This document shows positions 25,050-46,474 of a stretch of 64,000 nucleotides of DNA, in pieces (positions within the stretch are counted from its first letter, which is position 1; every line of letters starts with the position of its first letter). The position numbers and the translations under genes were made by a program. This DNA comes from an uncultured Gemmatimonadaceae bacterium (GTDB taxonomy: Bacteria > Gemmatimonadota > Gemmatimonadetes > Gemmatimonadales > Gemmatimonadaceae): positions 704,001 to 768,000 of the forward strand of contig CAWAGQ010000004.1 in assembly GCA_963781585.1 (NCBI GenBank), written 5' to 3'. The notes below the pieces were generated by a model. The model saw only the letters and a list, made by a program, of their open reading frames with translations, was not told where the DNA came from and did no database searches.

Positions 25050-27710
<2,661 letters not shown>

Positions 27711-27790
27711 GGGGCGTGGTGCGTCGCCGGCCGGATGATATTTTTCCGGTGGCATGCAGCACCTCACCCGCCACGCAGGAGCCTACGTCC

Positions 27791-28579
27791 GTGAGTCGCA
27801 CTGCCACTGGATTGCCGGCCGCGCCGGCGCCGGTTTCACCCGGCTCGAGTGGGACCCAGGCTGATCGGTTGTTTGCCGCCACGGCGCAGGGACCGGACGA
27901 TTTCCGCTTCGATACGAACACGGCCGCGGTCTTCGACGACATGGTCAACCGGTCGGTGCCGTTCTACGGAGAGATTCAGCGGATGATCGCGGAACTGGCG
28001 GCGGATTTCGCGGTGCCCGGCACGAACCTCTACGATCTCGGCTGCGCCACGGCCACCACATTTGCCGCCCTGGAGGGCGTGGTGGATCCCGGGGTGCGGT
28101 TCATCGGGATGGATAGCTCGGACGAGATGCTCTCCCGGGCGCGGCAGAAGCTGGACCTGGTGCCGAGCGCGCGGGAGCGGCGGCTGGTGGTACAGGACCT
28201 GAACGACCGGTTCCGGATCGAGAATGCCTCGGTCGTGATCATGATGCTGACCCTGCAGTTCGTGCGGCCGCTGCAACGTGAGCGGGTGGTTGGCGAGATC
28301 GCGCGCGGGCTCCATCCCGGGGGGTGTCTGATCCTCGTGGAGAAACTCACCGAGAGCGATTCGCTCTTCAACCGGCTGTTCATCAAGTACTACTACGAGA
28401 TGAAGCGCCGGCACGGATACTCGGAGCTGGAGATCGCCAAGAAGCGCGAGGCGCTGGAGAACGTGCTCATTCCCTATCACTACGAGGAGAATTCCACGCT
28501 CCTGCTGTCGAACGGGTTCAGCACCCTTCAGACGTGGTTCCGCTGGTACAACTTCTGTGGCATGATCGCGGTCAAGTGA
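27791..28579 (+). CDS. cmoA: Carboxy-S-adenosyl-L-methionine synthase
   Basis: FRFD...[51 protein letters not shown] 27791 follows an AGGAG. Confidence 0.9.
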
Positions 28580-29340
28580 CGGCGTCCGCCAGCGTCACCA
28601 CAAGCGCGGGCCCGACGCCACTGGCCCGGCTCGGTGCGTTCTTCTTCCGGTACCGCGACGCGGTGTTCCCGGGGGTGTTCGGCGTGATGGTGCTGGCCAC
28701 CGATCCGCAGCGCCTGCTGGGCAGTGACCGTCTGGACGCGCTCGCGGATGGCGTGGGGATTCTCCTGTCGGCTCTCGGCCAGGCGCTGCGGATCGCCGTT
28801 GTGGGCTACGCCTACATCATTCGCGGCGGGCGCAAGCGCACGGTATACGCGGAGGATCTCGTGACCGGCGGATTGTTCGGGGTCTGCCGCAATCCCCTCT
28901 ATCTCGGGAACCTGCTCGTCATTCTGGGGCTGTTGCTGATCTGGAACAGCCCGTGGGCGTACGCGGTCTGCGTTCCGTTCTTCCTGCTCGGCTATCGCGC
29001 GATCGTCGCCGCGGAGGAAGGCTACCTGCGCGCCCAGTTCGGACCGGCGTACGACCAGTACTGCCGGGAGGTTCGGCGCTGGCTGCCGGCGTGGGGGCGC
29101 CTAGCGAGCTCCGTGCAGGGAATTGGGTTCCACTGGCACCGGGTCGTGCTGAAGGAGTACGGCACCATCGCGGCCTGGCTGGGCACGACGCTCGCGCTGA
29201 TCGTGCTCGAGACCATCTCGTTCTCGACCGTTGCCGTGCACCCGGTGCGCCTCGCCGTGTGCGTCCTGCTGATCGCAATTGTCGTCGCGCTCTGGGCCAT
29301 CACGCGATGGCTGAAGATCACCCACCGCCTGCATCGATGA
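28576..29340 (+). CDS. Isoprenylcysteine carboxylmethyltransferase/PEMT-family membrane methyltransferase
   Basis: [18 protein letters not shown]...[26 protein letters not shown] signature and multiple TM segments; GTGA overlap with the cmoA stop. Confidence 0.88.
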
Positions 29341-31215
29341 GGACGACCGGCGACTGCCGGCGGTCGCCGCCGGCAGCACAATCCGGAACGTAGCCCCCTC
29401 GCCAGGTCCACTCTCGGCCGTCAGTTCACCGTCGTTCGCCTGCACCAGGCTGCGCGAGACTGCGAGCCCGAGCCCGATGCCGTGCGATTTGGTCGTGAAC
29501 AGGGGTTCAAAGATCTTTTCGAGGTTCTCCTCTGCTATTCCCGGTCCGGTGTCGCGTACCTCGAGCCGCACCCGATCCGGCCCGGTCGCCCGTCCACGAA
29601 GCGTGAGGATCGCGCTGCCTCCGTCCACGGCCTGAAGGGCGTTGGTCAGGAGATTGAAGACCACCTGTCCCAGCTGAACAGGATCGGCCCACACCGCCGG
29701 CAGGTCATCCGGGAAGTCGCGCTCCAGGCGGACGCCATTCAGCGAACCGAGCCGCTCGAGTTGCGCATCCACCAGCTCGACCAGAGGGACAGCGACTCGA
29801 TCCGGCGTCCTGATGCGCGCTACATCCAGCAGATCTCCGATAATGCGCTCCGAGAGCGCGACCTGCCGGCGCATCACGCCCAGATATTCCCGCACGTCCT
29901 CCGACGGCTGCTCCAGCACCAGTCCGAGATACTCGATGGCGTTGCTCATCACGCCCAGGGGATTGCGGAGCTCGTGTCCGACCCCGCTGGCAAGTTGTCC
30001 CAGGAGGGTCAGCTTCTCCCTGCGCAGCAGCGCCTCCTGCGCATCCCGCAACTGGCGATTCGTCTGGTCGAGATCGCGCGTCCGTTCGGCAACTTTCTCC
30101 TCGAGCCGTTGCTGCGAATCGCGAATGCGGCCGGCCATGGCTTCGAAGGCCTTGGACAGCCGACCGATTTCATCGGCGCGATCGGTCGGTACCGCGCGCG
30201 AGTAGTCCCCTGCTGCCACCTGGTCGGCGGCGTCGGTGAGCACGCGCAGCGGATGCGTGATACGACGTCCCAGGAACCACTGGACGGCGAGACCGATCAC
30301 GACGAAGGCGACCGCGATCAGCAGGATCTGCCTCAGGAACTGGTCAGCCGGTTCGAGAATGTTGCTGAACGGGAATTCCAGCCGCATCAGCCACGGTCGG
30401 GACGGCATGGCGGTGGTAATCGCCATAGCTGGCTCGAGGGAATCCGTCGCGGCGTAGCGGACCACCGAGTCGAGGGACGGCTCCGGACGGTCGGGCGGAC
30501 CCGATCCAACCAGGACGGACCAGTTGGTCCCGTCGCGATTCCCGATCACAAGGCGGGCTTTTGATCCGATTAGTTGCTGGAACCGCTCGGCGCCGTTCCC
30601 GCCCGGCGACCTCGGCATACGACGCCACTGCACCACGGCTCCGCGCACCGGTTTCCGGAACGTCGCGCCGAAGGGAAAGACCACTGCTCCGTCGTACGAG
30701 CGGAATTCTCCAAAGACGATGGAATCCTCACCGGCACGCCGGAGCATCGACGCCACGCTGGAATCGGCCCAGCTGGGCATCGTGGCGTTCCCCGCCCCGA
30801 GGAGGAGAGTACCCCCCGAGCTGCGCAATTCCGTACGAATCGCGCTGGGCACCGCCTTGTGCGCGGCCTGCAAGGCGTCGAGCGCGCTCAATTCAGTGCG
30901 CGGATCAGGGGAGGCGAGAAAAGTGCGCACCTCCCCGCTGTCCACCAGGGCGCGCAGCTGCAACGCGTTCTGCCGTCCAAGGGCACTGGTCACGGCTGTC
31001 AGCTGCCCGGAAAGGACCTGGAGGCGGTCTGCGGCCGCGTCGATGGCGGTGCGCCGTACCTCGTAGTATGAGGCCAGGCTGAGCGCCGCGGCGAGCAGCA
31101 GGAGCAGCACCGCCGTGATCAGCGGGACCTTGTAGGCGATCGAGAGCCTGGCCAGGAACCCGCTCGGCATGTGGCGAGGAGCACCCGGCAAGCCGGCGCC
31201 AGGACTAGCCGACAT
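29101..31215 (-). CDS. Membrane sensor histidine kinase (TM-extracytoplasmic sensor-TM-HAMP-HisKA-HATPase)
   Basis: HAMP (PLRVL...DEIGRL), H-box GHELRNPL, N-box NLLTNA, DTGPGI, FEPLFTTK, GLGL. Start is 31215 or 31170; the C-terminal tail runs into the convergent gene. Confidence 0.92.
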   Translation of the reverse strand: MSASPGAGLPGAPRHMPSGFLARLSIAYKVPLITAVLLLLLAAALSLASYYEVRRTAIDAAADRLQVLSGQLTAVTSALGRQNALQLRALVDSGEVRTFLASPDPRTELSALDALQAAHKAVPSAIRTELRSSGGTLLLGAGNATMPSWADSSVASMLRRAGEDSIVFGEFRSYDGAVVFPFGATFRKPVRGAVVQWRRMPRSPGGNGAERFQQLIGSKARLVIGNRDGTNWSVLVGSGPPDRPEPSLDSVVRYAATDSLEPAMAITTAMPSRPWLMRLEFPFSNILEPADQFLRQILLIAVAFVVIGLAVQWFLGRRITHPLRVLTDAADQVAAGDYSRAVPTDRADEIGRLSKAFEAMAGRIRDSQQRLEEKVAERTRDLDQTNRQLRDAQEALLRREKLTLLGQLASGVGHELRNPLGVMSNAIEYLGLVLEQPSEDVREYLGVMRRQVALSERIIGDLLDVARIRTPDRVAVPLVELVDAQLERLGSLNGVRLERDFPDDLPAVWADPVQLGQVVFNLLTNALQAVDGGSAILTLRGRATGPDRVRLEVRDTGPGIAEENLEKIFEPLFTTKSHGIGLGLAVSRSLVQANDGELTAESGPGEGATFRIVLPAATAGSRRSSSSMQAVGDLQPSRDGPERDDNCDQQDAHGEAHRVHGNGRERDGLEHDQRERRAQPGRDGAVLLQHDPVPVEPNSLHGAR

Positions 31216-31991
31216 CAGTTCGGGGTTGATTGCTGCCAGAACGTATCGGGGGCGATTGCAGGGCGGATGTGACGCGTCGCACGTCTTCACTTCCGGTGCT
31301 CGGCTTGCCGAAGGTCGCCATTGCAGGACTCGTCGCCTGGCCCGTGCTCGTGCGCCTGGGGACCGTCCGTACCCCGGCTCGCCCACCGGGTGCCAGTGCT
31401 GCACTACGCCCAGTGCCCGCCCGACCCCAAGATCGCATCACTCGCTCCGACTCGAAGGAAGGCATGTTGCCATCCGACTTGCAGGGACAGCGCCACCTAA
31501 CGAACCGCCGGGACGCGACCCTTCTCCGCGTGCGCGGGAAGAGCATCGGGCGACACGGACCGCGTGTCCTCGAAGAGTGCGTTCTCCCTAAGGTAGACGC
31601 CGCCAGGCAATGTGCAACCCGCGCGGGCGGCCGTCGCAGCCGGTCCGGAGGTCCGCCCTTCGCGGAAGCGTCCGGGGACCACAAACCGGGCCCATCCAAC
31701 ATCCTGGGGGTGCCGCACGTTCACTGAGGGTGTTTCGTCACATCCCGTGGTATGGCGGGAATTGCACGTGTTGGGCGCGCGGACGCGGATCGCGCTGGCG
31801 CGCCCAGCCCAGCGTTCTGCTGTGTCCGTGCACGCGGGCGCGGAGCGGCTGGGTTCGGTAACATTTCGCCACCCAGGAGCACCACCTCACTTCAGACGTC
31901 CGCACGGCCACGAGCCGCGCCTTACCTCCCGCGAACGCTCAGGAGCGCCAAACGTACGTCGCAAGCCACACACTGTGTTCGGAGGCCCCTC

Positions 31992-34900
31992 ATGGCAGCG
32001 CACCGCTTCACGACGTTTGGGTCAGCCGCAGTAGTCGCTCTCGGTCTGGGCTGGAGTTCCGCGACCGCCCAGTCGGGCCCGTCCTCGGGACCGGTGGCGC
32101 CGGAGTTCGAGCACCTGCACTTCCGGTCCATCGGTCCGGCGACCATGTCGGGCCGGATAGCGGATCTGGCGGTGTTCGAGGCCAATCCCGCGATCTTCTA
32201 CGTCGGCAGCGCACACGGCGGGGTCTGGAAGACGACAAGCAAGGGTGCCCTGTTCACGCCGCTGATGCAGGATCAGGGACTCCTCTCGATCGGTGACGTC
32301 ACCGTCTCGCAGCAGGATCCCGATCTGGTGTGGGTTGGTACCGGCGAATCGAACAATCGCCAGAGTACCTCCTGGGGCGACGGCGTCTTCAAGTCGACCG
32401 ATGGCGGGAAATCGTTCCAGTTCATGGGACTGGGCAACTCCAAGCACGTGGGCCGCATCGTTATCGACCCCGGCAACAACGACGTCGTGCTGGTGGCCGC
32501 CACCGGACCGCTGTTTGGTCCTGGCGGCGATCGCGGCGTCTACAAGACCGTGGATGGCGGCAAGACCTGGAAACAGGTACTCAAGGTCGACGACGAGACC
32601 GGGGCGAACGATCTGGTGATGGCCACGACCGATCCCCGGATCCTCTTTGCCTCGACATACCAGCGACGCCGGACCGCGTGCTGCATGAACGGCGGCGGAC
32701 CCGGGAGCGGCATCTGGAAGTCCACGGACGGCGGCGACACGTGGCGCCGGGTGAGCGGTGGCGGACTTCCCGGTGAGTCGCTGGGGCGCATCGCGGTCGA
32801 TGTGTATCGGAAGAACGCGAACATCGTGTACGCGTCGATCGAGGGACCCGGGACAGGGGGACGCGGCTTCGGCGGCGGCGGGGCCGCGCCGGAACCCGAC
32901 ACGGCGGCGGGGCGCGGCGGTCAGGCTGGTGGTCGAGGGGGGCGCGGTGGCGGCGGCGGAGCCGATCAGGGCGTCACGGGGCTCTATCGCTCCGACGACG
33001 GCGGACAGAACTGGCACAAGGTGAGCAGCAACAATCCGCGGCCGATGTATTTCAGCCAGGTTCGCATCGATCCGAACAATCCGGACCGCGTCTACATGGG
33101 CGGCGTCGGCCTGCAGATGACCATCGACGGCGGGCAGACCTTTGCAACCGACGCGGCGCTGGTCGCCCACGATGACATCCACGCGATCTGGATCGATCCG
33201 GGTAACTCGAATCACCTCCTGATCGGCAATGACGGCGGCGTGTACGAATCCTTCGACATGAGCAAGACGTGGACGTTCATGCCGAACCTGCCGGTAGGGC
33301 TCTTCTACCACGTCAGCTACGATATGGAGATGCCCTACAACGTCTGCGGCGGCATGCAGGACAACTACGACTGGTGCGGACCGAGCGCGTCGCGGCACGG
33401 CAACGGCATCATGAACTACGACTGGTTCCAGGTGCAGGGTGGTGACGGTTTCGTGGCACTGCCCGACCAGCGCGACTCGCGGTTCGTCTACACCGAGTCG
33501 CAGGATGGGAACATGATTCGTCGCAACAAGATCACCGGCGAATCGAAGAGCATCCGGCCGAACGCGAACAACGTCACGCCGCCTCCGGCCGAGGGCGAGA
33601 CGTTCCGGTTCCATTGGGACACGCCGATGATCCTCTCGCCGAACGATCCCGGCATTCTGCTGGTCGCGGCCAATCGCGTCTTCCGATCGACCGACCACGG
33701 CGACTCGTGGACGGTCATCAGTCCCGACCTCACGACCAACGCCGACCGCGACACGATCGTGACCATGGGGCTCAAAGGGAGCGACATCAGGATTTCGCGC
33801 GACGACGGCATCTCGCAATGGCCGACGATCGTCGCACTGGCGGAGTCGCCGCGGCAGCCGGGCGTTTACTACACCGGCACGGACGACGGCGTGGTGAGTA
33901 TTTCGCGCGACGGAGGAAAGAGCTGGCAGAACATCACCACGCGGCTTTCCGGATTCCCGGCCGGCGCATTTGTCTCCGAGGTGGTTCCGTCGCGTTTCGA
34001 CGCCGGCACGGTGTACATCACCGTCGACAACCACCGGCTGAATGACTTCGAAACCCATATGTGGGTGAGCAACGACTTCGGTGCAACGTTCCGCTCGCTC
34101 AACGGCGACCTCCGCGGTCAGGTGGTCAAGACGCTGACGGAAGACCAGCGCAATCCGGACGTGCTCTACATTGGTACCGAGACGGGAATCTTCCTGTCGC
34201 TCGATCGCGGAAAGACGTGGCGCCGGCTAAAGGCCAACCTGCCCACTGTGCGGGTCGACGAGATCACCCTGCATCCGCGCGACAACGCGATGATCGTCGC
34301 GACCCATGGTCGGGCCCTCTGGATCCTCGATCATCTCGAGCCGATTCAGGAGTACACCGCGGTCGCCTCGGCGGGCGGAGACGCCAGACTGTTCTCGGTG
34401 CCGAACGCCCTCGAGTGGAAGGCGAAGGACGATCGCAACGACGAATTCTGGGGCCACAACTACTTCATCGGCGAGAATCCGCCCACCGACGCCGTCATCG
34501 AGTTCGATCTCAAGCGTCCCGTCAACAACCTTTCGGTCAGGGTGACGGACGGGTCGGGGCGCACGGTCCGCGACATCACGGCGCCGGCGAATCGGCGGCA
34601 GGCCGGCATTCAGGCCGTCTGCTGGGATCTGCGCGTGGAGCCGATCGAGACGCCTAACGCTGGAGGGGGCGGTGGGCGGGGCGGTGCCGGACGTGGTGGG
34701 GGTGGAGGCGGCGGTGGCGGGCGCGGTGGCGCTCAGGCCGACATCCCGGGCGTACCAACGCCTCTTCCGACTCCCGGGTATCTGCCGTCCGATCCCTGCG
34801 CCCCCGAAGGCGGTGCGGGCGGTCGTGGTGGCGGTTTCGGTGGCTTCGGTGGGGGAGGCGGCGCGGGTCCGCACGTGCTGCCAGGAACGTACACGGTCGC

Positions 34901-35471
34901 GCTCATGGTCGACGGGAAACAGGTCGACAGCAAGTCCATGAAGGTGGTGATGGACCCGGCCGTACAACTCTCCGACGCGCAGCGTCGGCGCTACAACGAG
35001 ATCGTGAGCGATCTGCACGAGATGCAGCGGCGCGCGACCGAGGCGGCCACGGCGCTGAACACGATGTACCCGCAGATGACTGCCATCGCCACGAAGATCA
35101 AGGACATGAACGACGTTTCCGCCGGAGACAAGGAGCAGTTCGCGGCCTTCAACAAGGACTTCGACGGGATCCGCGACAAGTTTGGCGTACCCATGGGTGG
35201 AGCGGGCGGGCGTGGTGGCGGTCGCGGCGGTGGACGCGGAGCGCCGATCGATCCGCAGAACGTTCTGGCGCGGGTCGCGGCGCTGAAGGGTCAGATGCTG
35301 GGCATGTGGGAAATGCCGAGCGAGGCCCTGGTACGGCAGTACTCCGAGCTGAAGGGAGCGCTACCGAAGTCTGTGGCAGACGCCAACGCGTTTCTCGCCC
35401 GCGCCCTGAACATGAGTGCGATGCTCAAGCGGTATTCGCTGACGCTCACCGTTCCGGCCAGCCCAAAGTGA
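31992..35471 (+). CDS. Secreted VPS10/sortilin-like (BNR/Asp-box) beta-propeller protein, putative glycosyl hydrolase
   Basis: GGAGG RBS, signal peptide, FRSIGPATMSGRI, repeated SxDGGxTW Asp-boxes, GGMQDN. Confidence 0.88.
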   Translation: MAAHRFTTFGSAAVVALGLGWSSATAQSGPSSGPVAPEFEHLHFRSIGPATMSGRIADLAVFEANPAIFYVGSAHGGVWKTTSKGALFTPLMQDQGLLSIGDVTVSQQDPDLVWVGTGESNNRQSTSWGDGVFKSTDGGKSFQFMGLGNSKHVGRIVIDPGNNDVVLVAATGPLFGPGGDRGVYKTVDGGKTWKQVLKVDDETGANDLVMATTDPRILFASTYQRRRTACCMNGGGPGSGIWKSTDGGDTWRRVSGGGLPGESLGRIAVDVYRKNANIVYASIEGPGTGGRGFGGGGAAPEPDTAAGRGGQAGGRGGRGGGGGADQGVTGLYRSDDGGQNWHKVSSNNPRPMYFSQVRIDPNNPDRVYMGGVGLQMTIDGGQTFATDAALVAHDDIHAIWIDPGNSNHLLIGNDGGVYESFDMSKTWTFMPNLPVGLFYHVSYDMEMPYNVCGGMQDNYDWCGPSASRHGNGIMNYDWFQVQGGDGFVALPDQRDSRFVYTESQDGNMIRRNKITGESKSIRPNANNVTPPPAEGETFRFHWDTPMILSPNDPGILLVAANRVFRSTDHGDSWTVISPDLTTNADRDTIVTMGLKGSDIRISRDDGISQWPTIVALAESPRQPGVYYTGTDDGVVSISRDGGKSWQNITTRLSGFPAGAFVSEVVPSRFDAGTVYITVDNHRLNDFETHMWVSNDFGATFRSLNGDLRGQVVKTLTEDQRNPDVLYIGTETGIFLSLDRGKTWRRLKANLPTVRVDEITLHPRDNAMIVATHGRALWILDHLEPIQEYTAVASAGGDARLFSVPNALEWKAKDDRNDEFWGHNYFIGENPPTDAVIEFDLKRPVNNLSVRVTDGSGRTVRDITAPANRRQAGIQAVCWDLRVEPIETPNAGGGGGRGGAGRGGGGGGGGGRGGAQADIPGVPTPLPTPGYLPSDPCAPEGGAGGRGGGFGGFGGGGGAGPHVLPGTYTVALMVDGKQVDSKSMKVVMDPAVQLSDAQRRRYNEIVSDLHEMQRRATEAATALNTMYPQMTAIATKIKDMNDVSAGDKEQFAAFNKDFDGIRDKFGVPMGGAGGRGGGRGGGRGAPIDPQNVLARVAALKGQMLGMWEMPSEALVRQYSELKGALPKSVADANAFLARALNMSAMLKRYSLTLTVPASPK

Positions 35472-41152: not shown

Positions 41153-43792
41153 CTACCGCGCCATTCTGGTTTTCAGCTCCTCCACCCAGTTGAGGACCAC
41201 CACGATCGGGAGCGCGTCCGGGCGCTCTACCGGCTTCACCATGAGGAACCGATTGCCGTCCGGGGAAACATCATATCGATGCACGTCAATCGTGGTCGCG
41301 TGGTCGTACGGTCCGCGAAAGAGCACAACCGGCGCGGAGAAGCTCCCCGCCGCCGGATCTGCGGCCACGGACATCATGGCATCCCCGTGCCGGAACACGA
41401 TCTCCCGGCCCCCCCGCGAAAATCGTGGCTCGGTGCCGCCGGCGATGGATACCTGAATCCGGGCCCCTGATCCGTCGGTCGCACGAACGAAGACCTCCTC
41501 GCGGCCGCGGGCCTCCGCCGCAAACGCCACCCAGCGACCGTCGGGCGAGAGCGCCGGTTGGTTACCGCTTGCCGTGGAATCCAGCTGCCACGGTGGCCGG
41601 CGGCCATCGAGCGGCGCCAGCATGATCCGATTATCGCGGCGCACCGTTTCGACATACACCATGAGACCGGCGGCTGGCGAGATGCTCGTCGGGTTCTTGT
41701 CGTAGGGGCTCTCGACCACCGCGCGTGGAGGCACGCTGTTGTCGGCACGAACGGAGTAGATGTCGTAGGCGCGCGCCTCCCACGAACAGAGCACGCTCCG
41801 ACCGTCCGGCGCCCATACCGCGCTGAACACCGCGCCGGGGTGTCCTTCCACCGTGGTGAGGATCCCCCGTCCGACCTCGAAGAATCCCAGCGTCGGATAG
41901 GCCTCGCGAATCGTGACCGCGATCCACCTGCCGTCGGGCGACAGCCGCGGTTCCGAATACTTCCCTGGAGTTGGCAGAGCGTCCCGCTCCCGTCCATCGC
42001 GATCCACCCAGAGCACCCGCGCCTGAGTTGCCCAGGCCGTCGCGCTGACGTAGGCCAGCGTACCGTCAGGGGCGACGGCGTAGGCCGCCTGTCCCAGCGT
42101 CGGATTCCAGAACACGTCTTCCAGCACGGGCACCGCGTCACCGGAGGTGGTGAGTGTGCCGGGGTCGAATGCGATCGCGAACACGGTCCCGTCGCGAACG
42201 AAGAGCAGGTGGCCGCCCGGCGCGTACCGTCCGTTGACCGCATTCTCCTGCACGACCGTACGCGCGCCGGAGCGAAGGTCGATCGTCTCGATCCGCGAGC
42301 GTCCGATGGGAATCGCGTAGTTCGTGAACAGGGCGACCTGGCCCCCGGGCAGGGGCTGCGGCCGCCAGTGCGCCCACTCGCCGCGCGCGACGTCCAGCGA
42401 GGTCAGCGACCGCGACTGCCCGCCTGACGACGCAATGCTGGAGAGGCCGAAGTCACTCGCGCGCGTGTAGACAATGGACCCGTCGGGCATCCAGGCCCCG
42501 CCATCGAGGGCATCCTCGCTGAGGGTCACGCTCGGGCCGCCGCGCGACGGTACCTTGAGCAGCACGTGATCCCGGTTGAACGAGAGCCACTCGCCGTCGG
42601 TCGAGAAGGTCGCAAGCCGGCCCCCGTCGGTGCCGGCGATGCGGACCACGTCGCTCGACGCCAGATTCCGTACCAGCACGCCCTGCTGGTCGGGGCCGAT
42701 TTCGCCGCTGAGCGCGATGCGCCGACCGTCGGGAGACAGGTCGAGGTAGATCGAGCTGCCGCCCGGCTGCCCCATCGCGAGGGCGAAACGCGTCACGTCA
42801 CGGCGCGCGTTTCCGCCGGCGCGGCTCTTCAAGGTCCAACCGGCCACGAGACCAATCGCCAGCAGCACCAATCCGGCGACGGGCCACTGCCACGAGCGAA
42901 GCGCGCGCCGCCCGCCAAGCGGCGGACGCGACCGATCACGCGGGGCCGGAGTCGTGGTCGCTCCGGAAATGGCGCCCGCGAATTCCGCCGCGGAGTGGAA
43001 TCGGTCGGCGGGGAGCTTCTCGAGGGCGGTGAGCACGGCGTCCTCGACGTATGCCGGAATGCGCTCACGCCGCGCCGCCAGCGGCGCCGGCTTCTCCGTC
43101 ATCACCTTGGCCACGATGGCCTGCGCCGTGGGACCGGTGAACGGCGGCTCCCCGAGCAGCATCTCGTACAGCATCGCGCCGAGGGCGTACACGTCGGTGC
43201 GCGCGTCGAGGTCCCGCTCGCCCATGGCCTGCTCGGGGCTCATGTAGGTGGGCGTGCCCAGCGACAGCCCGGTCTCGGTCATCCGGCTGGCGCCATCGGA
43301 CCGGCTCACCGCCAGGGCGATACCGAAATCGGCGACCAGCGCCGCGCCGTCGTGCAGCAGGATGTTCTCGGGCTTGATGTCGCGATGAATCACGCCGTGC
43401 CGATGCGCGTAATCGAGCGCCGAGGCGATTTCGGTGGCGATACGCACGGCGTCGGATATAGGGAGCTGCTTCTCCCGTGTGAGTCGGTCGCGAAGCGATT
43501 CGCCTTCCACGTACGGCATCACGTAGTAGACGGTGCCGTTCACCTCGCCCGAGTCGTGAAGCGGGAGAATGTGCGGATGCTGGAGGTTCGCCGTCGTCTT
43601 GATCTCGGCGAGGAATCGCTCTGCCCCGATGACCGCGGCCAGCTCCGGGCGCAGCACCTTGATGGCGACCTGGCGGTCGTGCTTTAGGTCATGCGCGAGG
43701 TAGACCGTGGCCATGCCGCCCGCGCCGAGCTCGCGCTCGATCCGGTAGCTGTCCGAGAGGCTCCGGCGCAGCGCGTCGGCGGTGGTGGTCAC
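41153..43792 (-). CDS. Ser/Thr protein kinase with TM segment and TolB/PD40 beta-propellers
   Basis: LGAGGMATVY, VAIK, HRDIKPEN, DFG, GTPTYMSPEQ; SPDGR repeats; GTG 43792. Confidence 0.93.
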   Translation of the reverse strand: MTTTADALRRSLSDSYRIERELGAGGMATVYLAHDLKHDRQVAIKVLRPELAAVIGAERFLAEIKTTANLQHPHILPLHDSGEVNGTVYYVMPYVEGESLRDRLTREKQLPISDAVRIATEIASALDYAHRHGVIHRDIKPENILLHDGAALVADFGIALAVSRSDGASRMTETGLSLGTPTYMSPEQAMGERDLDARTDVYALGAMLYEMLLGEPPFTGPTAQAIVAKVMTEKPAPLAARRERIPAYVEDAVLTALEKLPADRFHSAAEFAGAISGATTTPAPRDRSRPPLGGRRALRSWQWPVAGLVLLAIGLVAGWTLKSRAGGNARRDVTRFALAMGQPGGSSIYLDLSPDGRRIALSGEIGPDQQGVLVRNLASSDVVRIAGTDGGRLATFSTDGEWLSFNRDHVLLKVPSRGGPSVTLSEDALDGGAWMPDGSIVYTRASDFGLSSIASSGGQSRSLTSLDVARGEWAHWRPQPLPGGQVALFTNYAIPIGRSRIETIDLRSGARTVVQENAVNGRYAPGGHLLFVRDGTVFAIAFDPGTLTTSGDAVPVLEDVFWNPTLGQAAYAVAPDGTLAYVSATAWATQARVLWVDRDGRERDALPTPGKYSEPRLSPDGRWIAVTIREAYPTLGFFEVGRGILTTVEGHPGAVFSAVWAPDGRSVLCSWEARAYDIYSVRADNSVPPRAVVESPYDKNPTSISPAAGLMVYVETVRRDNRIMLAPLDGRRPPWQLDSTASGNQPALSPDGRWVAFAAEARGREEVFVRATDGSGARIQVSIAGGTEPRFSRGGREIVFRHGDAMMSVAADPAAGSFSAPVVLFRGPYDHATTIDVHRYDVSPDGNRFLMVKPVERPDALPIVVVLNWVEELKTRMAR

Positions 43793-43970
43793 GAGAGAGG
43801 GGCGATGCGAGGGACCATCAGGAGAGGCAAACGTACGCGCGAGCCCCACCGCCTTCAACGCCCGAGAGGCCGGAGGAGAGCCGCCTTCCCATGATGCGCG
43901 ACGTCGGTACGTTATGGAGTGCATCCCCTTCCCGTTCGTGATACACCTCCGGTCCCGCCTCCAGGCCGCC

Positions 43971-45971
43971 ATGCGCACTGTCTCGTTAGGCGCGTTCATG
44001 ACCCTCATCGCCGCGACGGCGGGCCGGTCGCAATCGGTGCGTCTCCACGTTGACCGGCGCGAGCCCGTGCTCGGCAGCCGCGCGTTCGGCGCCGCGGGAG
44101 CCTACGAGAAGCTGATCGGGACGGTGGAGTTCCAGTTCGACCCGGGACTTCCCGCCAATGCGATGATCGTCGATCTGCCGCTGGCCCCGCGCAACGCGGA
44201 TGGCCGGGTGGTGGTTACCGCCGACTTCTATCTCCTCAAGCCCGTCGATCCGGAGAACGGCAACGGACGGCTCTTCTACGAGGTCGGGAATCGTGGCGGC
44301 AAGGGCATGCTGGTCACGTTTCAGAAAGCGACGGGCTCGACCGATCCGTCCACCGAGGCGCAGTTCGGGGACGCGTGGCTCATGGAGCGGGGGTTCTCGC
44401 TGCTCTGGATGGGGTGGCAGTGGGACGTGCCTGACGGGCGCATGCGGATGGAGATGCCGATCGCGACCGAGGATGGCCGCCAGATCACCGGACTGGTACG
44501 CGGGAACTTCATTCCCGATATCCGTGCGGACACCGAGTCGCTGGCCGATCGCGGGCACAAGGGATATCCGGTGCTCGATCCGCGGAGCCCCGATAACGTG
44601 ATGACCGTGCGTGCGAACCGGACGGATTCGCCGCAGGTGGTGCCACATGAGAAGTGGCGATTCGTCGGCGATTGGAGCGTGAGCCTCGACGGCGGATTCG
44701 AGCCGGGGATGATCTACGATGTCGTCTACCGGGCCCGAGATCCGCGTGTTGTGGGCGTTGGACTTGCCGGCACGCGAGACATCATCAGCTTCTTCAAGTA
44801 CGAGAAGGGGCCTGCGAATCCGTTGCCCACGATTCGCTACGCGCTCGCCTGGGGAGGATCGCAGAGCGGTCGATTCCTCCGCCACTTTCTCTACCAGGGT
44901 TTCAACGCCGACGCGCAGGGGCGGCGGGTCTTCGACGGCGTGATCGACGAGCGCGGCGGTGCCGGCCGCGGGTCGTTCAATCATCGCTTCGCGCAGGCGT
45001 CGCGCGACGCGCTGGAGCATTACAACATTCTTTTCCCCGTGGACATGTTCCCGTTCACGGATGGCCTCGAGACCGACCCGCTCACCGGCGAGACCGACGG
45101 CTTGCTGGCGCGAGCCGACCGGAGCGGCACAGCGCCCAAGGTCTTCCACATCCTCTCGGGCTCGGAGTACTGGAATCGCGCCGGGTCCCTGCTGCACACG
45201 GACGTGACGGGCGCGCGGGACGTCGCTGTACCGGCGAATGTCCGTCTGTACTTCATCTCGTCGGCGCCGCACATCATCGGTCCCCGTCCGCCCACCTCGC
45301 ACCGGTCCGGCACACTGGTCGGGCAGGCCGCGCTCAATCCGCTCGATCCCCGTCCGGTGGTGCGCAGCCTGTTCGACGCCATGGACCGCTGGGTCACCGA
45401 CGACATCGACCCGCCGGCGAGCCGCTATCCGCAGATTGCCGATGGCACGCTGGTGCCTCGCCAACGCGGTGGATGGCCCGCGATACCCGGATATCGCTTT
45501 CCGCCACCGCAACTCATCACGTATCGGCTCGACTTCGGCCCCAACTGGTCGCGCGGCATCGTCGACAACGAGCCACCGAAGATCGGCGCCCCATTCGCGG
45601 TCCTCGTGCCGGCCGTAGATGCCGACGGCAACGACCGCGCAGGCGTTCGTATTCCGGAACTCGCCGTCCCGCTCGGCACGTTCTTCGGCTGGAACTACCG
45701 GGACGCCAGTATCGGGGCTCCGGAACACCTGGCGGGTGAGATCGGCTCGTACATCCCGTTCGCCCGCACACGCGTCGAGCGCCACCGCAATGGCGATCCG
45801 CGTCTCTCGATCGAGGAGCGCTACCCGAACAAGGACGACTACATGGCGAGGATCGAGAAGGCGGCGAGGGACCTTGTGACCCACGGCTATCTGTTGGCGC
45901 GAGACGTGCCCGATGTGGTGGCGCGGGCCGCGGTGCTCTGGGACTGGGCGATCAGCCCGTCGCCTCGATGA
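43971..45971 (+). CDS. Secreted alpha/beta hydrolase-domain protein (Abhydrolase_10-like)
   Basis: Signal peptide, YEVGNRG, GWQWD, nucleophile elbow WGGSQSGRFLR, EYW, DADGN. Confidence 0.8.
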   Translation: MRTVSLGAFMTLIAATAGRSQSVRLHVDRREPVLGSRAFGAAGAYEKLIGTVEFQFDPGLPANAMIVDLPLAPRNADGRVVVTADFYLLKPVDPENGNGRLFYEVGNRGGKGMLVTFQKATGSTDPSTEAQFGDAWLMERGFSLLWMGWQWDVPDGRMRMEMPIATEDGRQITGLVRGNFIPDIRADTESLADRGHKGYPVLDPRSPDNVMTVRANRTDSPQVVPHEKWRFVGDWSVSLDGGFEPGMIYDVVYRARDPRVVGVGLAGTRDIISFFKYEKGPANPLPTIRYALAWGGSQSGRFLRHFLYQGFNADAQGRRVFDGVIDERGGAGRGSFNHRFAQASRDALEHYNILFPVDMFPFTDGLETDPLTGETDGLLARADRSGTAPKVFHILSGSEYWNRAGSLLHTDVTGARDVAVPANVRLYFISSAPHIIGPRPPTSHRSGTLVGQAALNPLDPRPVVRSLFDAMDRWVTDDIDPPASRYPQIADGTLVPRQRGGWPAIPGYRFPPPQLITYRLDFGPNWSRGIVDNEPPKIGAPFAVLVPAVDADGNDRAGVRIPELAVPLGTFFGWNYRDASIGAPEHLAGEIGSYIPFARTRVERHRNGDPRLSIEERYPNKDDYMARIEKAARDLVTHGYLLARDVPDVVARAAVLWDWAISPSPR

Positions 45972-46099: not shown

Positions 46100-46117
46100 G
46101 CGTGCAATTCCTGCGAG

Positions 46118-46474
46118 TGGAGGCGCGGGGAGTTGAACCCCGGTCCGAGACTGGATCTACCACAGCGTCTACGTGCGTAGCTCTCCATTCATTGTCTTCA
46201 GGAACTGGCCGGTGAGCCGCCGATTCCCGAACGAGCCCTCTTGATTTTCGCGAGACGCCGGAAGGCGCGACGCCCCGCTATCCCGATATTGCGATACCCG
46301 CGAAGCCGCCTCGGGCGGGCTTCCTCGAGGGCAGGTGCGTGAACGCGTTAAGCGTTACGCAGCCAGGGCCAAGTTGTTGTTGGCAGTTGTGATTTTCCCG
46401 AGAGTTTTACCAGGGCTCAGGACCTGGGCACGCAGCCACGGCTTCACCGACCCCGTCGAAGCCAGGTCGCCCCC
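46118..46474 (-). ncRNA. ssrA: Transfer-messenger RNA; tag (A)ANNNLALAA
   Basis: 5' GGGGGCGACCTGGCTTCGAC; 3' T-arm and acceptor CGGGGTTCAACTCCCCGCGCCTCCA with a G3:U pair; tag ORF at 46384-46355 reads GCC AAC AAC AAC TTG GCC CTG GCT GCG TAA. Confidence 0.96.

Follow-up and report, generated by a model that had tools for sequence, protein, structure and literature searches.

A CmoA-type carboxy-SAM synthase gene is coupled to an ICMT-fold membrane transferase gene in many bacterial phyla: a candidate pathway for membrane carboxymethylation

In Escherichia coli, CmoA makes carboxy-S-adenosylmethionine (Cx-SAM) from S-adenosylmethionine (SAM) and prephenate, and a second enzyme, CmoB, transfers the carboxymethyl group, as described in PMC4482062. 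The Cx-SAM transferases known so far are CmoB, TglF and MccB-CTD (PMC10491745), and CmoX of phages (PMC12783734). According to the accounts given in these sources, all four are soluble and of the Rossmann type, and all four are encoded beside a CmoA homologue (PMC10491745, PMC12783734, PMC4482062), while further Cx-SAM acceptors 'remain to be discovered' in the words of PMC4482062. Here we describe a gene pair in a chromosomal stretch of 64,000 nucleotides from an uncultured Gemmatimonadaceae bacterium (67.5% G+C; hereafter the window, to whose positions all coordinates refer). The first gene (27791..28579, + strand) encodes a CmoA-type carboxy-SAM synthase of 262 amino acids from a subfamily associated with the membrane transferase gene, and the second (28576..29340, + strand) encodes an integral-membrane transferase of the ICMT/PEMT fold with 254 amino acids and six predicted transmembrane helices. 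We consider it probable that the two products constitute a Cx-SAM cascade, in which the membrane-embedded enzyme would carboxymethylate a lipid or another hydrophobic acceptor.

The upstream product scored 225.2 bits against the CmoA equivalog model TIGR00740 of NCBIfam (cut-off 193.3), and the match was full-length (protein residues 25-262, model positions 2-239 of 239). With the stricter enterobacterial CmoA model NF011995 it reached 168.3 bits, which is under the cut-off of 285. The protein is 38% identical to CmoA of E. coli K-12 over 242 residues and matched the solved CmoA/YecO chains 1im8 and 4gek with E-values of about 1e-49. Its residue R219 (codon at 28445..28447, + strand) is the alignment equivalent of R199 in E. 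coli CmoA and sits in the segment of residues 210-220. Arg-199 is described as the sole residue of E. coli CmoA that touches the carboxylate of Cx-SAM (PMC4482062), and an Arg occupies the equivalent column in 66 of the 70 CmoAs that are linked to the membrane gene at related loci (hereafter module CmoAs). These results bear out the view, put forward in the original prediction from the sequence, that the window holds a full CmoA including the Arg that binds Cx-SAM. Judged by family membership and the kept Arg, the window enzyme would make Cx-SAM. GTG 27791 is the likely start of the gene, and a GGAG read from the sequence 9 nucleotides 5' of it (27778..27781, + strand) is a likely ribosome-binding site. 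This start is not certain, however, because an alternative, longer open reading frame (ORF) opens at 27650.

The downstream protein is much further removed from the characterised families. The only Pfam family above its gathering score was PF04191 (PEMT; 41.7 bits, gathering score 25), and this match spans residues 92-156 alone, which correspond to the shared cofactor core. No model for the family of this protein was found in the NCBIfam scan. LmtA was the best-scoring characterised family (TIGR04571; residues 17-200 against positions 8-191 of the 252-position model), but the score of 69.7 bits is far under the cut-off of 325, and the model for protein-S-isoprenylcysteine O-methyltransferase (NF040696) gave 30.7 bits, under its cut-off of 160. 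Thirty homologues of the membrane protein were aligned, and the AlphaFold2 model, made with a 30-sequence alignment, had a pLDDT (predicted local distance difference test) of 88 and a pTM (predicted template modelling score) of 0.84. We read this model as six long, membrane-spanning helices plus short amphipathic helices. Its top four Foldseek matches in the PDB were all ICMT-fold chains (8xku_G, 5v7p, 4a2n and 5vg9), with probabilities of 0.99-1.00 and TM-scores of just 0.31-0.40. Three of these chains were also reached by profile matches, with E-values of about 5e-8 for 5vg9 and 5v7p and of 7e-6 for 4a2n. By the positive-inside rule, our reading of the model places the conserved polar residues and the C-terminus on the cytoplasmic side. 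When 1.84 billion cluster representatives were searched by profile, 313 matched at E≤1e-30, 4404 at E≤1e-10 and 23461 at E≤1e-3, and a search of a protein-cluster atlas with the membrane protein returned PEMT/ICMT-type clusters only. Among the representatives P0265, P0130 and P0213, other architectures of the family were seen, one with a C-terminal OmpA-family (peptidoglycan-binding) domain and two with doubled PEMT/ICMT stretches.

The two genes overlap by four nucleotides, the GTG start of the membrane gene and the TGA stop of cmoA sharing the sequence GTGA (28576..28579, + strand). No further in-frame start lies between GTG 28576 and the conserved N-terminal region, and the nearest one further 5' is at 28324. 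As the original prediction had it, cmoA therefore overlaps an integral-membrane gene, a statement that is upheld by the sequence itself, the PF04191 match and the ICMT-fold model. The best reading of the overlap is that the two genes are translationally coupled and form an operon; cmoA and cmoB of E. coli likewise overlap by 4 nucleotides. To place the pair in a wider context, species-representative genomes were scanned with patterns that represent the hallmark motifs of the membrane family itself. Relatives were present in at least 585 genomes, and the analysis was confined to the best 80 loci with flanks of up to 8 kb. They belong to Pseudomonadota (30), Gemmatimonadota (20), Acidobacteriota (5), Myxococcota, Planctomycetota and Verrucomicrobiota (3 each), Nitrospirota, Eisenbacteria and Armatimonadota (2 each) and Hydrogenedentota, Binatota, Bacteroidota and Rhodothermota (1 each), which makes 13 named phyla, and to six loci without an assigned phylum. 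A cmoA-like gene was found directly 5' on the same strand in 75 of these 80 loci by tblastn with the window CmoA; imperfect among the 75 matches are those cut by contig ends (L010, L043, L062, L078), those split into two high-scoring segment pairs (HSPs; L029, L069) and those to divergent proteins (L047, L052, L059, L076). In 35 of the 75 loci the stop codon of cmoA is overlapped by an in-frame start over 4 nucleotides. The five loci without a cmoA match were L004, L006, L012, L018 and L023, of which L006 has just 200 nucleotides of upstream sequence. A pairing at 75 of 80 related loci far exceeds what chance would produce, and the co-occurrence of cmoA with this membrane family extends across the 13 named phyla.

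The same arrangement was seen on plasmids. In a plasmid collection the membrane protein matched 18 records (Ensifer 9, Rhizobium 6, Sinorhizobium 2 and Gemmatirosa kalamazoonensis 1), and cmoA was directly upstream in all five plasmid or chromid loci inspected, including those of cultured Gemmatirosa kalamazoonensis, Ensifer and Rhizobium. RefSeq labels the pair as 'cmoA', with the Gene Ontology (GO) term 'tRNA modification', and 'isoprenylcysteine carboxylmethyltransferase family protein'. A complex prediction for CmoA and the membrane protein gave scores of 0.00 and 0.00, which speak neither for nor against binding.

The CmoA proteins that accompany the membrane gene resemble each other. When identities were compared for 69 module CmoAs, each represented by a single HSP of more than 200 amino acids, the median identity was 59.7% to the window CmoA versus 38.0% to E. 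coli CmoA, and 66 of the 69 were nearer to the former. Even the gammaproteobacterial module CmoAs are 57-65% identical to the window protein, which stems from Gemmatimonadota, and only 37-41% identical to that of E. coli. Because the gammaproteobacterial proteins thus resemble the Gemmatimonadota protein more than the E. coli protein, the module CmoAs form, as judged by these identities, an orthologous group of their own that is distinct from the cmoB-linked CmoA.

No partner of the classical kind was detected near the pair. The six frames of the 64 kb window gave no tblastn match to E. coli CmoB and the 38 window ORFs scanned against NCBIfam gave no CmoB match, in keeping with the earlier statement that cmoB is absent from the window. 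Likewise, tblastn with E. coli CmoB found no match in the 80 related loci with their flanks or in the five inspected plasmid loci. When the whole plasmid collection was searched with the same query, all matches were partial, about 30% identical and from Rhizobium; one belongs to a protein annotated as a methyltransferase of the TIGR04290 family. According to PMC4482062, CmoB orthologues occur in proteobacteria and in some Verrucomicrobia, Acidobacteria and Cyanobacteria.

A further line of evidence concerns the supply of prephenate, which is both the product of chorismate mutase and the co-substrate of CmoA (PMC4482062). When the 2829 ORFs of the flanks were clustered, only one other recurrent neighbour of the module emerged, a gene for a type I-beta DAHP synthase that adjoins it in 16 of the 80 loci. 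In 14 of these 16, the synthase is accompanied by a chorismate mutase, in some cases encoded by a small gene of its own and in others part of a fusion with the synthase. Moreover, five of 12 long representatives of the membrane protein (at least 309 amino acids) carried a C-terminal type II chorismate mutase domain in a Pfam scan. A search with one such fusion listed 120 clusters, 15 of which combine PEMT-type and chorismate mutase domains in one protein. These fusion clusters come from several sources and from contigs of up to 50.9 kb; they carry the JGI name 'Ste14/chorismate mutase', and in one NCBI record the protein is labelled as a chorismate mutase of a metagenome-assembled genome of Phycisphaerales. 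The fusions keep the motifs of the membrane family, and one is 45% identical to the window protein over 181 residues. The cytoplasmic C-terminus read from the model fits a cytoplasmic chorismate mutase domain in these fusions. Since chorismate mutase makes the co-substrate of CmoA, the links support a role of Cx-SAM, whereas an ordinary SAM-dependent membrane methyltransferase would have no evident use for this enzyme. Among Gemmatimonadaceae relatives (L016, L017, L020 and L040, also L012 and L022), the close ones show the gene order purF-ppdK-DAHP synthase-chorismate mutase-cmoA-membrane gene. In the window, ppdK (pyruvate phosphate dikinase; 25050-27710) directly precedes the cmoA ORF, without intervening genes for DAHP synthase and chorismate mutase.

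We also counted residue conservation in 79 sequences of the membrane family. Invariant residues were G20, R27, G68, R72, R83, G85, A92, L95, G99, R105, N106, P107, Y109, G111, N112, E147, E148, L151, Y162 and R168, and K247 was present in 78 of 78. Of the ICMT cofactor motif R-H-P-x-Y-x-G plus EE, the R, P, Y, G and EE are invariant, whereas the His is replaced in all 79 sequences. In the window protein this motif reads RNPLY (28888..28902, + strand), with R105, N106, P107 and Y109 each found in 79 of 79; the solved ICMT-fold chains that were aligned all have R-H-P, versus R-N-P in these 79 sequences. R-N-P was also present in 119 of 120 and in 139 of 150 family members among the matches listed. 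This invariant change from His to Asn suggests that the cofactor site has been altered. The pair E147-E148 (29014..29019, + strand), part of the cofactor segment AEE..L...FG..Y..Y, was found in 79 of 79 and aligns with the EE of the Tribolium and Methanosarcina ICMTs. By comparison with ICMT, the features specific to the family are an RGG loop, R27, K193, K247 and two extra C-terminal helices, which carry the motif F-[NH]-W-x-R-V-x-x-K-E-Y-G. The RGG (R83-G84-G85; 28822..28830, + strand) belongs to the loop IIRGGRKR, which is read as cytoplasmic, has low pLDDT in the model and has no counterpart in the aligned ICMT structures; R83 and G85 were present in 79 of 79 sequences and G84 in 78 of 79. 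As a basic residue specific to the family, R83 is a candidate ligand of the Cx-SAM carboxylate, and R27, R83, N106, K193 and K247 are candidates for the residues that would choose Cx-SAM over SAM. In a profile alignment, R72 of the window protein corresponds to R173 of Tribolium ICMT, which we take to bind the carboxylate of the substrate.

In the cascade that we propose, the soluble CmoA-type enzyme would first convert SAM and prephenate into Cx-SAM. The six-helix ICMT-fold protein, a candidate Cx-SAM-dependent carboxymethyltransferase, would then bind Cx-SAM in a cytoplasm-facing pocket formed by the conserved segment LVT.G.F..RNPLY.GN ... AEE..L..FG..Y..Y...V.RW.P, and would transfer the carboxymethyl moiety (+58.005 Da) from Cx-SAM to a nucleophile on an acceptor that is hydrophobic or resides in the membrane, thereby standing in for CmoB. 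In many relatives, the prephenate would come from a dedicated DAHP synthase and chorismate mutase, the latter sometimes fused to the membrane enzyme. For the acceptor, we favour with low confidence, and by analogy, O-carboxymethylation of an anionic lipid head group, because ICMT and LmtA, the nearest characterised families, alkylate anionic oxygens (a carboxylate and, by the NCBIfam name of LmtA, the 1-phosphate of lipid A), because R72 is kept, and because the 13 named phyla are presumably all diderm. The ICMT-type enzyme MddA methylates methanethiol; small hydrophobic acceptors are possible alternatives, and the acceptor need not be a lipid.

Several observations weigh against the proposed cascade. 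Four Gemmatimonadota loci (L004, L012, L018 and L023) carry the membrane gene with other genes upstream and no adjacent cmoA, and two of them, L004 and L018, belong together with L006 to the clade closest to the window membrane protein in a quick tree of 79 rows, from which L051 and L054 were omitted as their translated pieces were too short. These four loci indicate that the membrane gene can persist apart from cmoA and that the linkage is not obligatory. At four other loci (L047, L052, L059 and L076), the upstream gene encodes a divergent CmoA-like protein that scores 148-172 bits, under the TIGR00740 cut-off, and that has no Arg in the R199 column. CmoA is still the best NCBIfam family for these proteins, which are 27-36% identical to the window CmoA. 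In addition, no fusion of CmoA with the membrane protein was found among longer relatives, which by the nature of the search is weak evidence, and neither clustering of the flank ORFs nor Pfam analysis of 40 of the 62 downstream ORFs revealed a conserved third gene that would point to the acceptor, the neighbours being heterogeneous. Lastly, cmoB or another soluble user of Cx-SAM may be encoded elsewhere in the genome, beyond the searched stretches.

These points have to be weighed together with three other explanations. The membrane enzyme could be an ordinary SAM methyltransferase that acts at another step of the pathway, for example by forming the methyl ester of a carboxyl or carboxymethyl group, in the manner of CmoM on uridine 5-oxyacetic acid (cmo5U) and ICMT on prenylcysteine, while an unlinked enzyme carries out the carboxymethyl transfer. 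This would agree with the fact that ICMT-family enzymes are carboxyl or phosphate O-methyltransferases, with the retained ICMT cofactor segment and the Arg aligned to the substrate-binding Arg of ICMT, and with the four loci that have the membrane gene without adjacent cmoA. We nevertheless regard it as unlikely, since the conserved module consists of just two genes with no candidate carboxymethyltransferase travelling along, cmoB is absent from all searched flanks, the fusion with chorismate mutase ties the membrane enzyme to the production of Cx-SAM and not to a later methylation, and the invariant replacement of His in the cofactor motif suggests an altered cofactor site. Improbable to a still greater degree is the view that the CmoA subfamily makes another SAM derivative or itself methylates, so that both enzymes act sequentially on a hydrophobic compound derived from chorismate or prephenate. 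It is true that the subfamily is just about 38% identical to E. coli CmoA and that the links to DAHP synthase and chorismate mutase could equally mean a shikimate-derived acceptor instead of a cofactor. However, the equivalog cut-off of TIGR00740 is exceeded, the Arg to which PMC4482062 ascribes contact with the Cx-SAM carboxylate is kept in all but four of the 70 proteins, and the product of chorismate mutase is exactly the co-substrate of CmoA.

The adjacency could also be meaningless, with CmoA serving the cmo5U modification of tRNA together with a cmoB elsewhere, and with the membrane methyltransferase as an unrelated neighbour. The GO term 'tRNA modification' that RefSeq attaches to the paired cmoA would be in line with this explanation, as would the possibility of a cmoB elsewhere in the genome. 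It is, however, strongly disfavoured, and in our opinion very improbable indeed, given the same-strand pairing throughout the 13 named phyla, often with a stop/start overlap, the dedicated CmoA subfamily that accompanies the membrane gene, and the chorismate mutase fused to the membrane protein. All three explanations are weakened because the two-gene module is constant, cmoB is absent from the 80 flanks, the Arg is conserved and the mutase fusions exist. The central claim of the original prediction, that CmoA feeds a membrane transferase of the ICMT/PEMT fold and not CmoB, is supported by the adjacency, the absence of cmoB from the window and the flanks, the CmoA subfamily and the prephenate links. 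Its further suggestion, a use of Cx-SAM outside tRNA, is not new in itself, as TglF, MccB-CTD and phage CmoX, all of them soluble, are earlier cases.

Individual loci showed some additional features. The divergent CmoA-like proteins, which represent a third type, come from Massilia and Acidovorax (L047, L059 and L076) and from Dongiaceae (L052), and three of the four have an Arg one position after the R199 column. Among the loci without adjacent cmoA, a phosphotriesterase-like gene lies upstream of the membrane gene in L004, and genes for a sugar isomerase and an oxidoreductase in L018; in L023 the genes for DAHP synthase and chorismate mutase are directly upstream, and in L012 ppdK is directly followed by the membrane gene. 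The search for longer proteins that combine other domains with the membrane family returned only two EamA (PF00892)-PEMT proteins, one of them named a drug/metabolite transporter-like permease by JGI. Envelope-type neighbours were isolated cases, namely a lipid A biosynthesis acyltransferase (L057, 5356-6372), an Rce1-like CAAX protease (L058, 8728-9831), a KDO8P synthase (L019, 3536-4372) and, in Ensifer canadensis, a PAP2 phosphatase after a two-component pair (L082, 8015-8689). These single neighbours are anecdotes, too few to name the acceptor.

The remainder of the window is filled by housekeeping genes, including trp genes, lexA, purC/L/F, guaA, lysA, proS, hisS, accD and mreBCD-pbp2. 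Judging by named protein relatives, the stretch falls within Gemmatimonadaceae. A scan of 27000-30000 for promoters and terminators gave no signal exceeding shuffled expectation. Convergent to the membrane gene is an ORF for a sensor histidine kinase (29101-31404, - strand; 767 amino acids), the kinase core of which ends at about residue 690. Its tail, with the stop at 29101, overlaps the 3' end of the membrane gene on the opposite strand by about 240 nucleotides (29101-29340), which is either a genuine long convergent overlap or a tail that represents non-functional read-through. A protein of 1239 amino acids (31752-35471, + strand) has three stretches that matched the model for F510_1955 family glycosylhydrolases, and it contains long Gly/Arg-rich low-complexity runs with GGRGG repeats. 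A Ser/Thr protein kinase (41153-44008, - strand) combines a PknB-like kinase domain and a TolB-like beta-propeller region in one chain. The Rfam search of the window detected a full-length tmRNA (46115-46474, - strand; RF00023, 163 bits) and nothing else.

A more far-reaching reading, which we offer tentatively and hold at somewhat less than an even chance, is that the pair represents a widespread and hitherto unrecognised bacterial pathway in at least 13 named phyla, composed of a dedicated CmoA subfamily fed by its own chorismate mutase and the first known membrane-embedded carboxymethyltransferase of the ICMT fold. The pathway would yield carboxymethylated membrane lipids or envelope molecules of a new class, such as lipids with a phosphate or carboxylate that is esterified with a carboxymethyl group. 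If this is true, Cx-SAM would extend to membrane chemistry, beyond the four systems so far in which soluble transferases act on nucleic acids or peptides. A modification of +58 Da on a lipid or hydrophobic molecule would then be predicted in many environmental and plant-associated bacteria, the automatic annotation of the paired cmoA genes with 'tRNA modification' would need correcting, and a natural membrane enzyme would be added to the biocatalytic tools for carboxymethylation. The hypothesis is accessible in cultivable carriers of the pair, such as Ensifer, Rhizobium and Gemmatirosa. Among the papers listed in a literature search, as judged from titles and the openings of abstracts, none described a CmoA with an ICMT/PEMT-type membrane partner or a membrane or lipid Cx-SAM transferase.

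The window protein can be compared with three groups of known membrane methyltransferases. With PEMT and the bacterial phospholipid N-methyltransferases (PF04191), the match is limited to the cofactor core, and nothing indicates phosphatidylethanolamine as the acceptor. With ICMT/Ste14 (5v7p, 5vg9 and 4a2n), it has the fold in common and also the C-terminal segment for the cofactor (LVT.G.Y, R.P.Y.G, EE..L..FG..Y..Y); unlike these enzymes, its family has Asn for the His of RHP, the invariant RGG loop and two more C-terminal helices. LmtA, the Leptospira lipid A Kdo2 1-phosphate O-methyltransferase, is similar in being a membrane enzyme of the ICMT type that acts on a lipid head group, but it is named as a SAM-dependent methyltransferase, and the window protein stays far under the cut-off of its model.

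With the known Cx-SAM transferases, by contrast, the membrane protein shares neither sequence nor fold homology, since it has the all-helical ICMT fold versus their Rossmann fold. A close parallel in organisation is CmoA/CmoB, where cmoA likewise leads an operon of two cistrons and its stop overlaps the next start by 4 nucleotides. However, the second gene of the window encodes a membrane protein with six helices and the ICMT/PEMT fold, whereas CmoB is soluble, of the Rossmann type and equipped with a tRNA-binding N-domain, and the window CmoA falls into a separate subfamily. In TglE/TglF (3-thiaglutamate), MccS/MccB-CTD (microcin C-like) and phage CmoA/CmoX (5-carboxymethylcytosine), a CmoA homologue likewise adjoins a dedicated transferase with a non-tRNA acceptor, as these systems are described in PMC10491745 and PMC12783734. 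Their transferases are soluble and Rossmann-type, have a peptide, a peptidyl-nucleotide or DNA as their acceptor, and are encoded in specialised clusters or phages, whereas the window pair is chromosomal, has relatives in 13 named phyla and has a transferase that is embedded in the membrane. The two-enzyme logic of Cx-SAM is thus a known one, and what would be new here is the fold of the transferase, its cellular location and, presumably, the class of acceptor.

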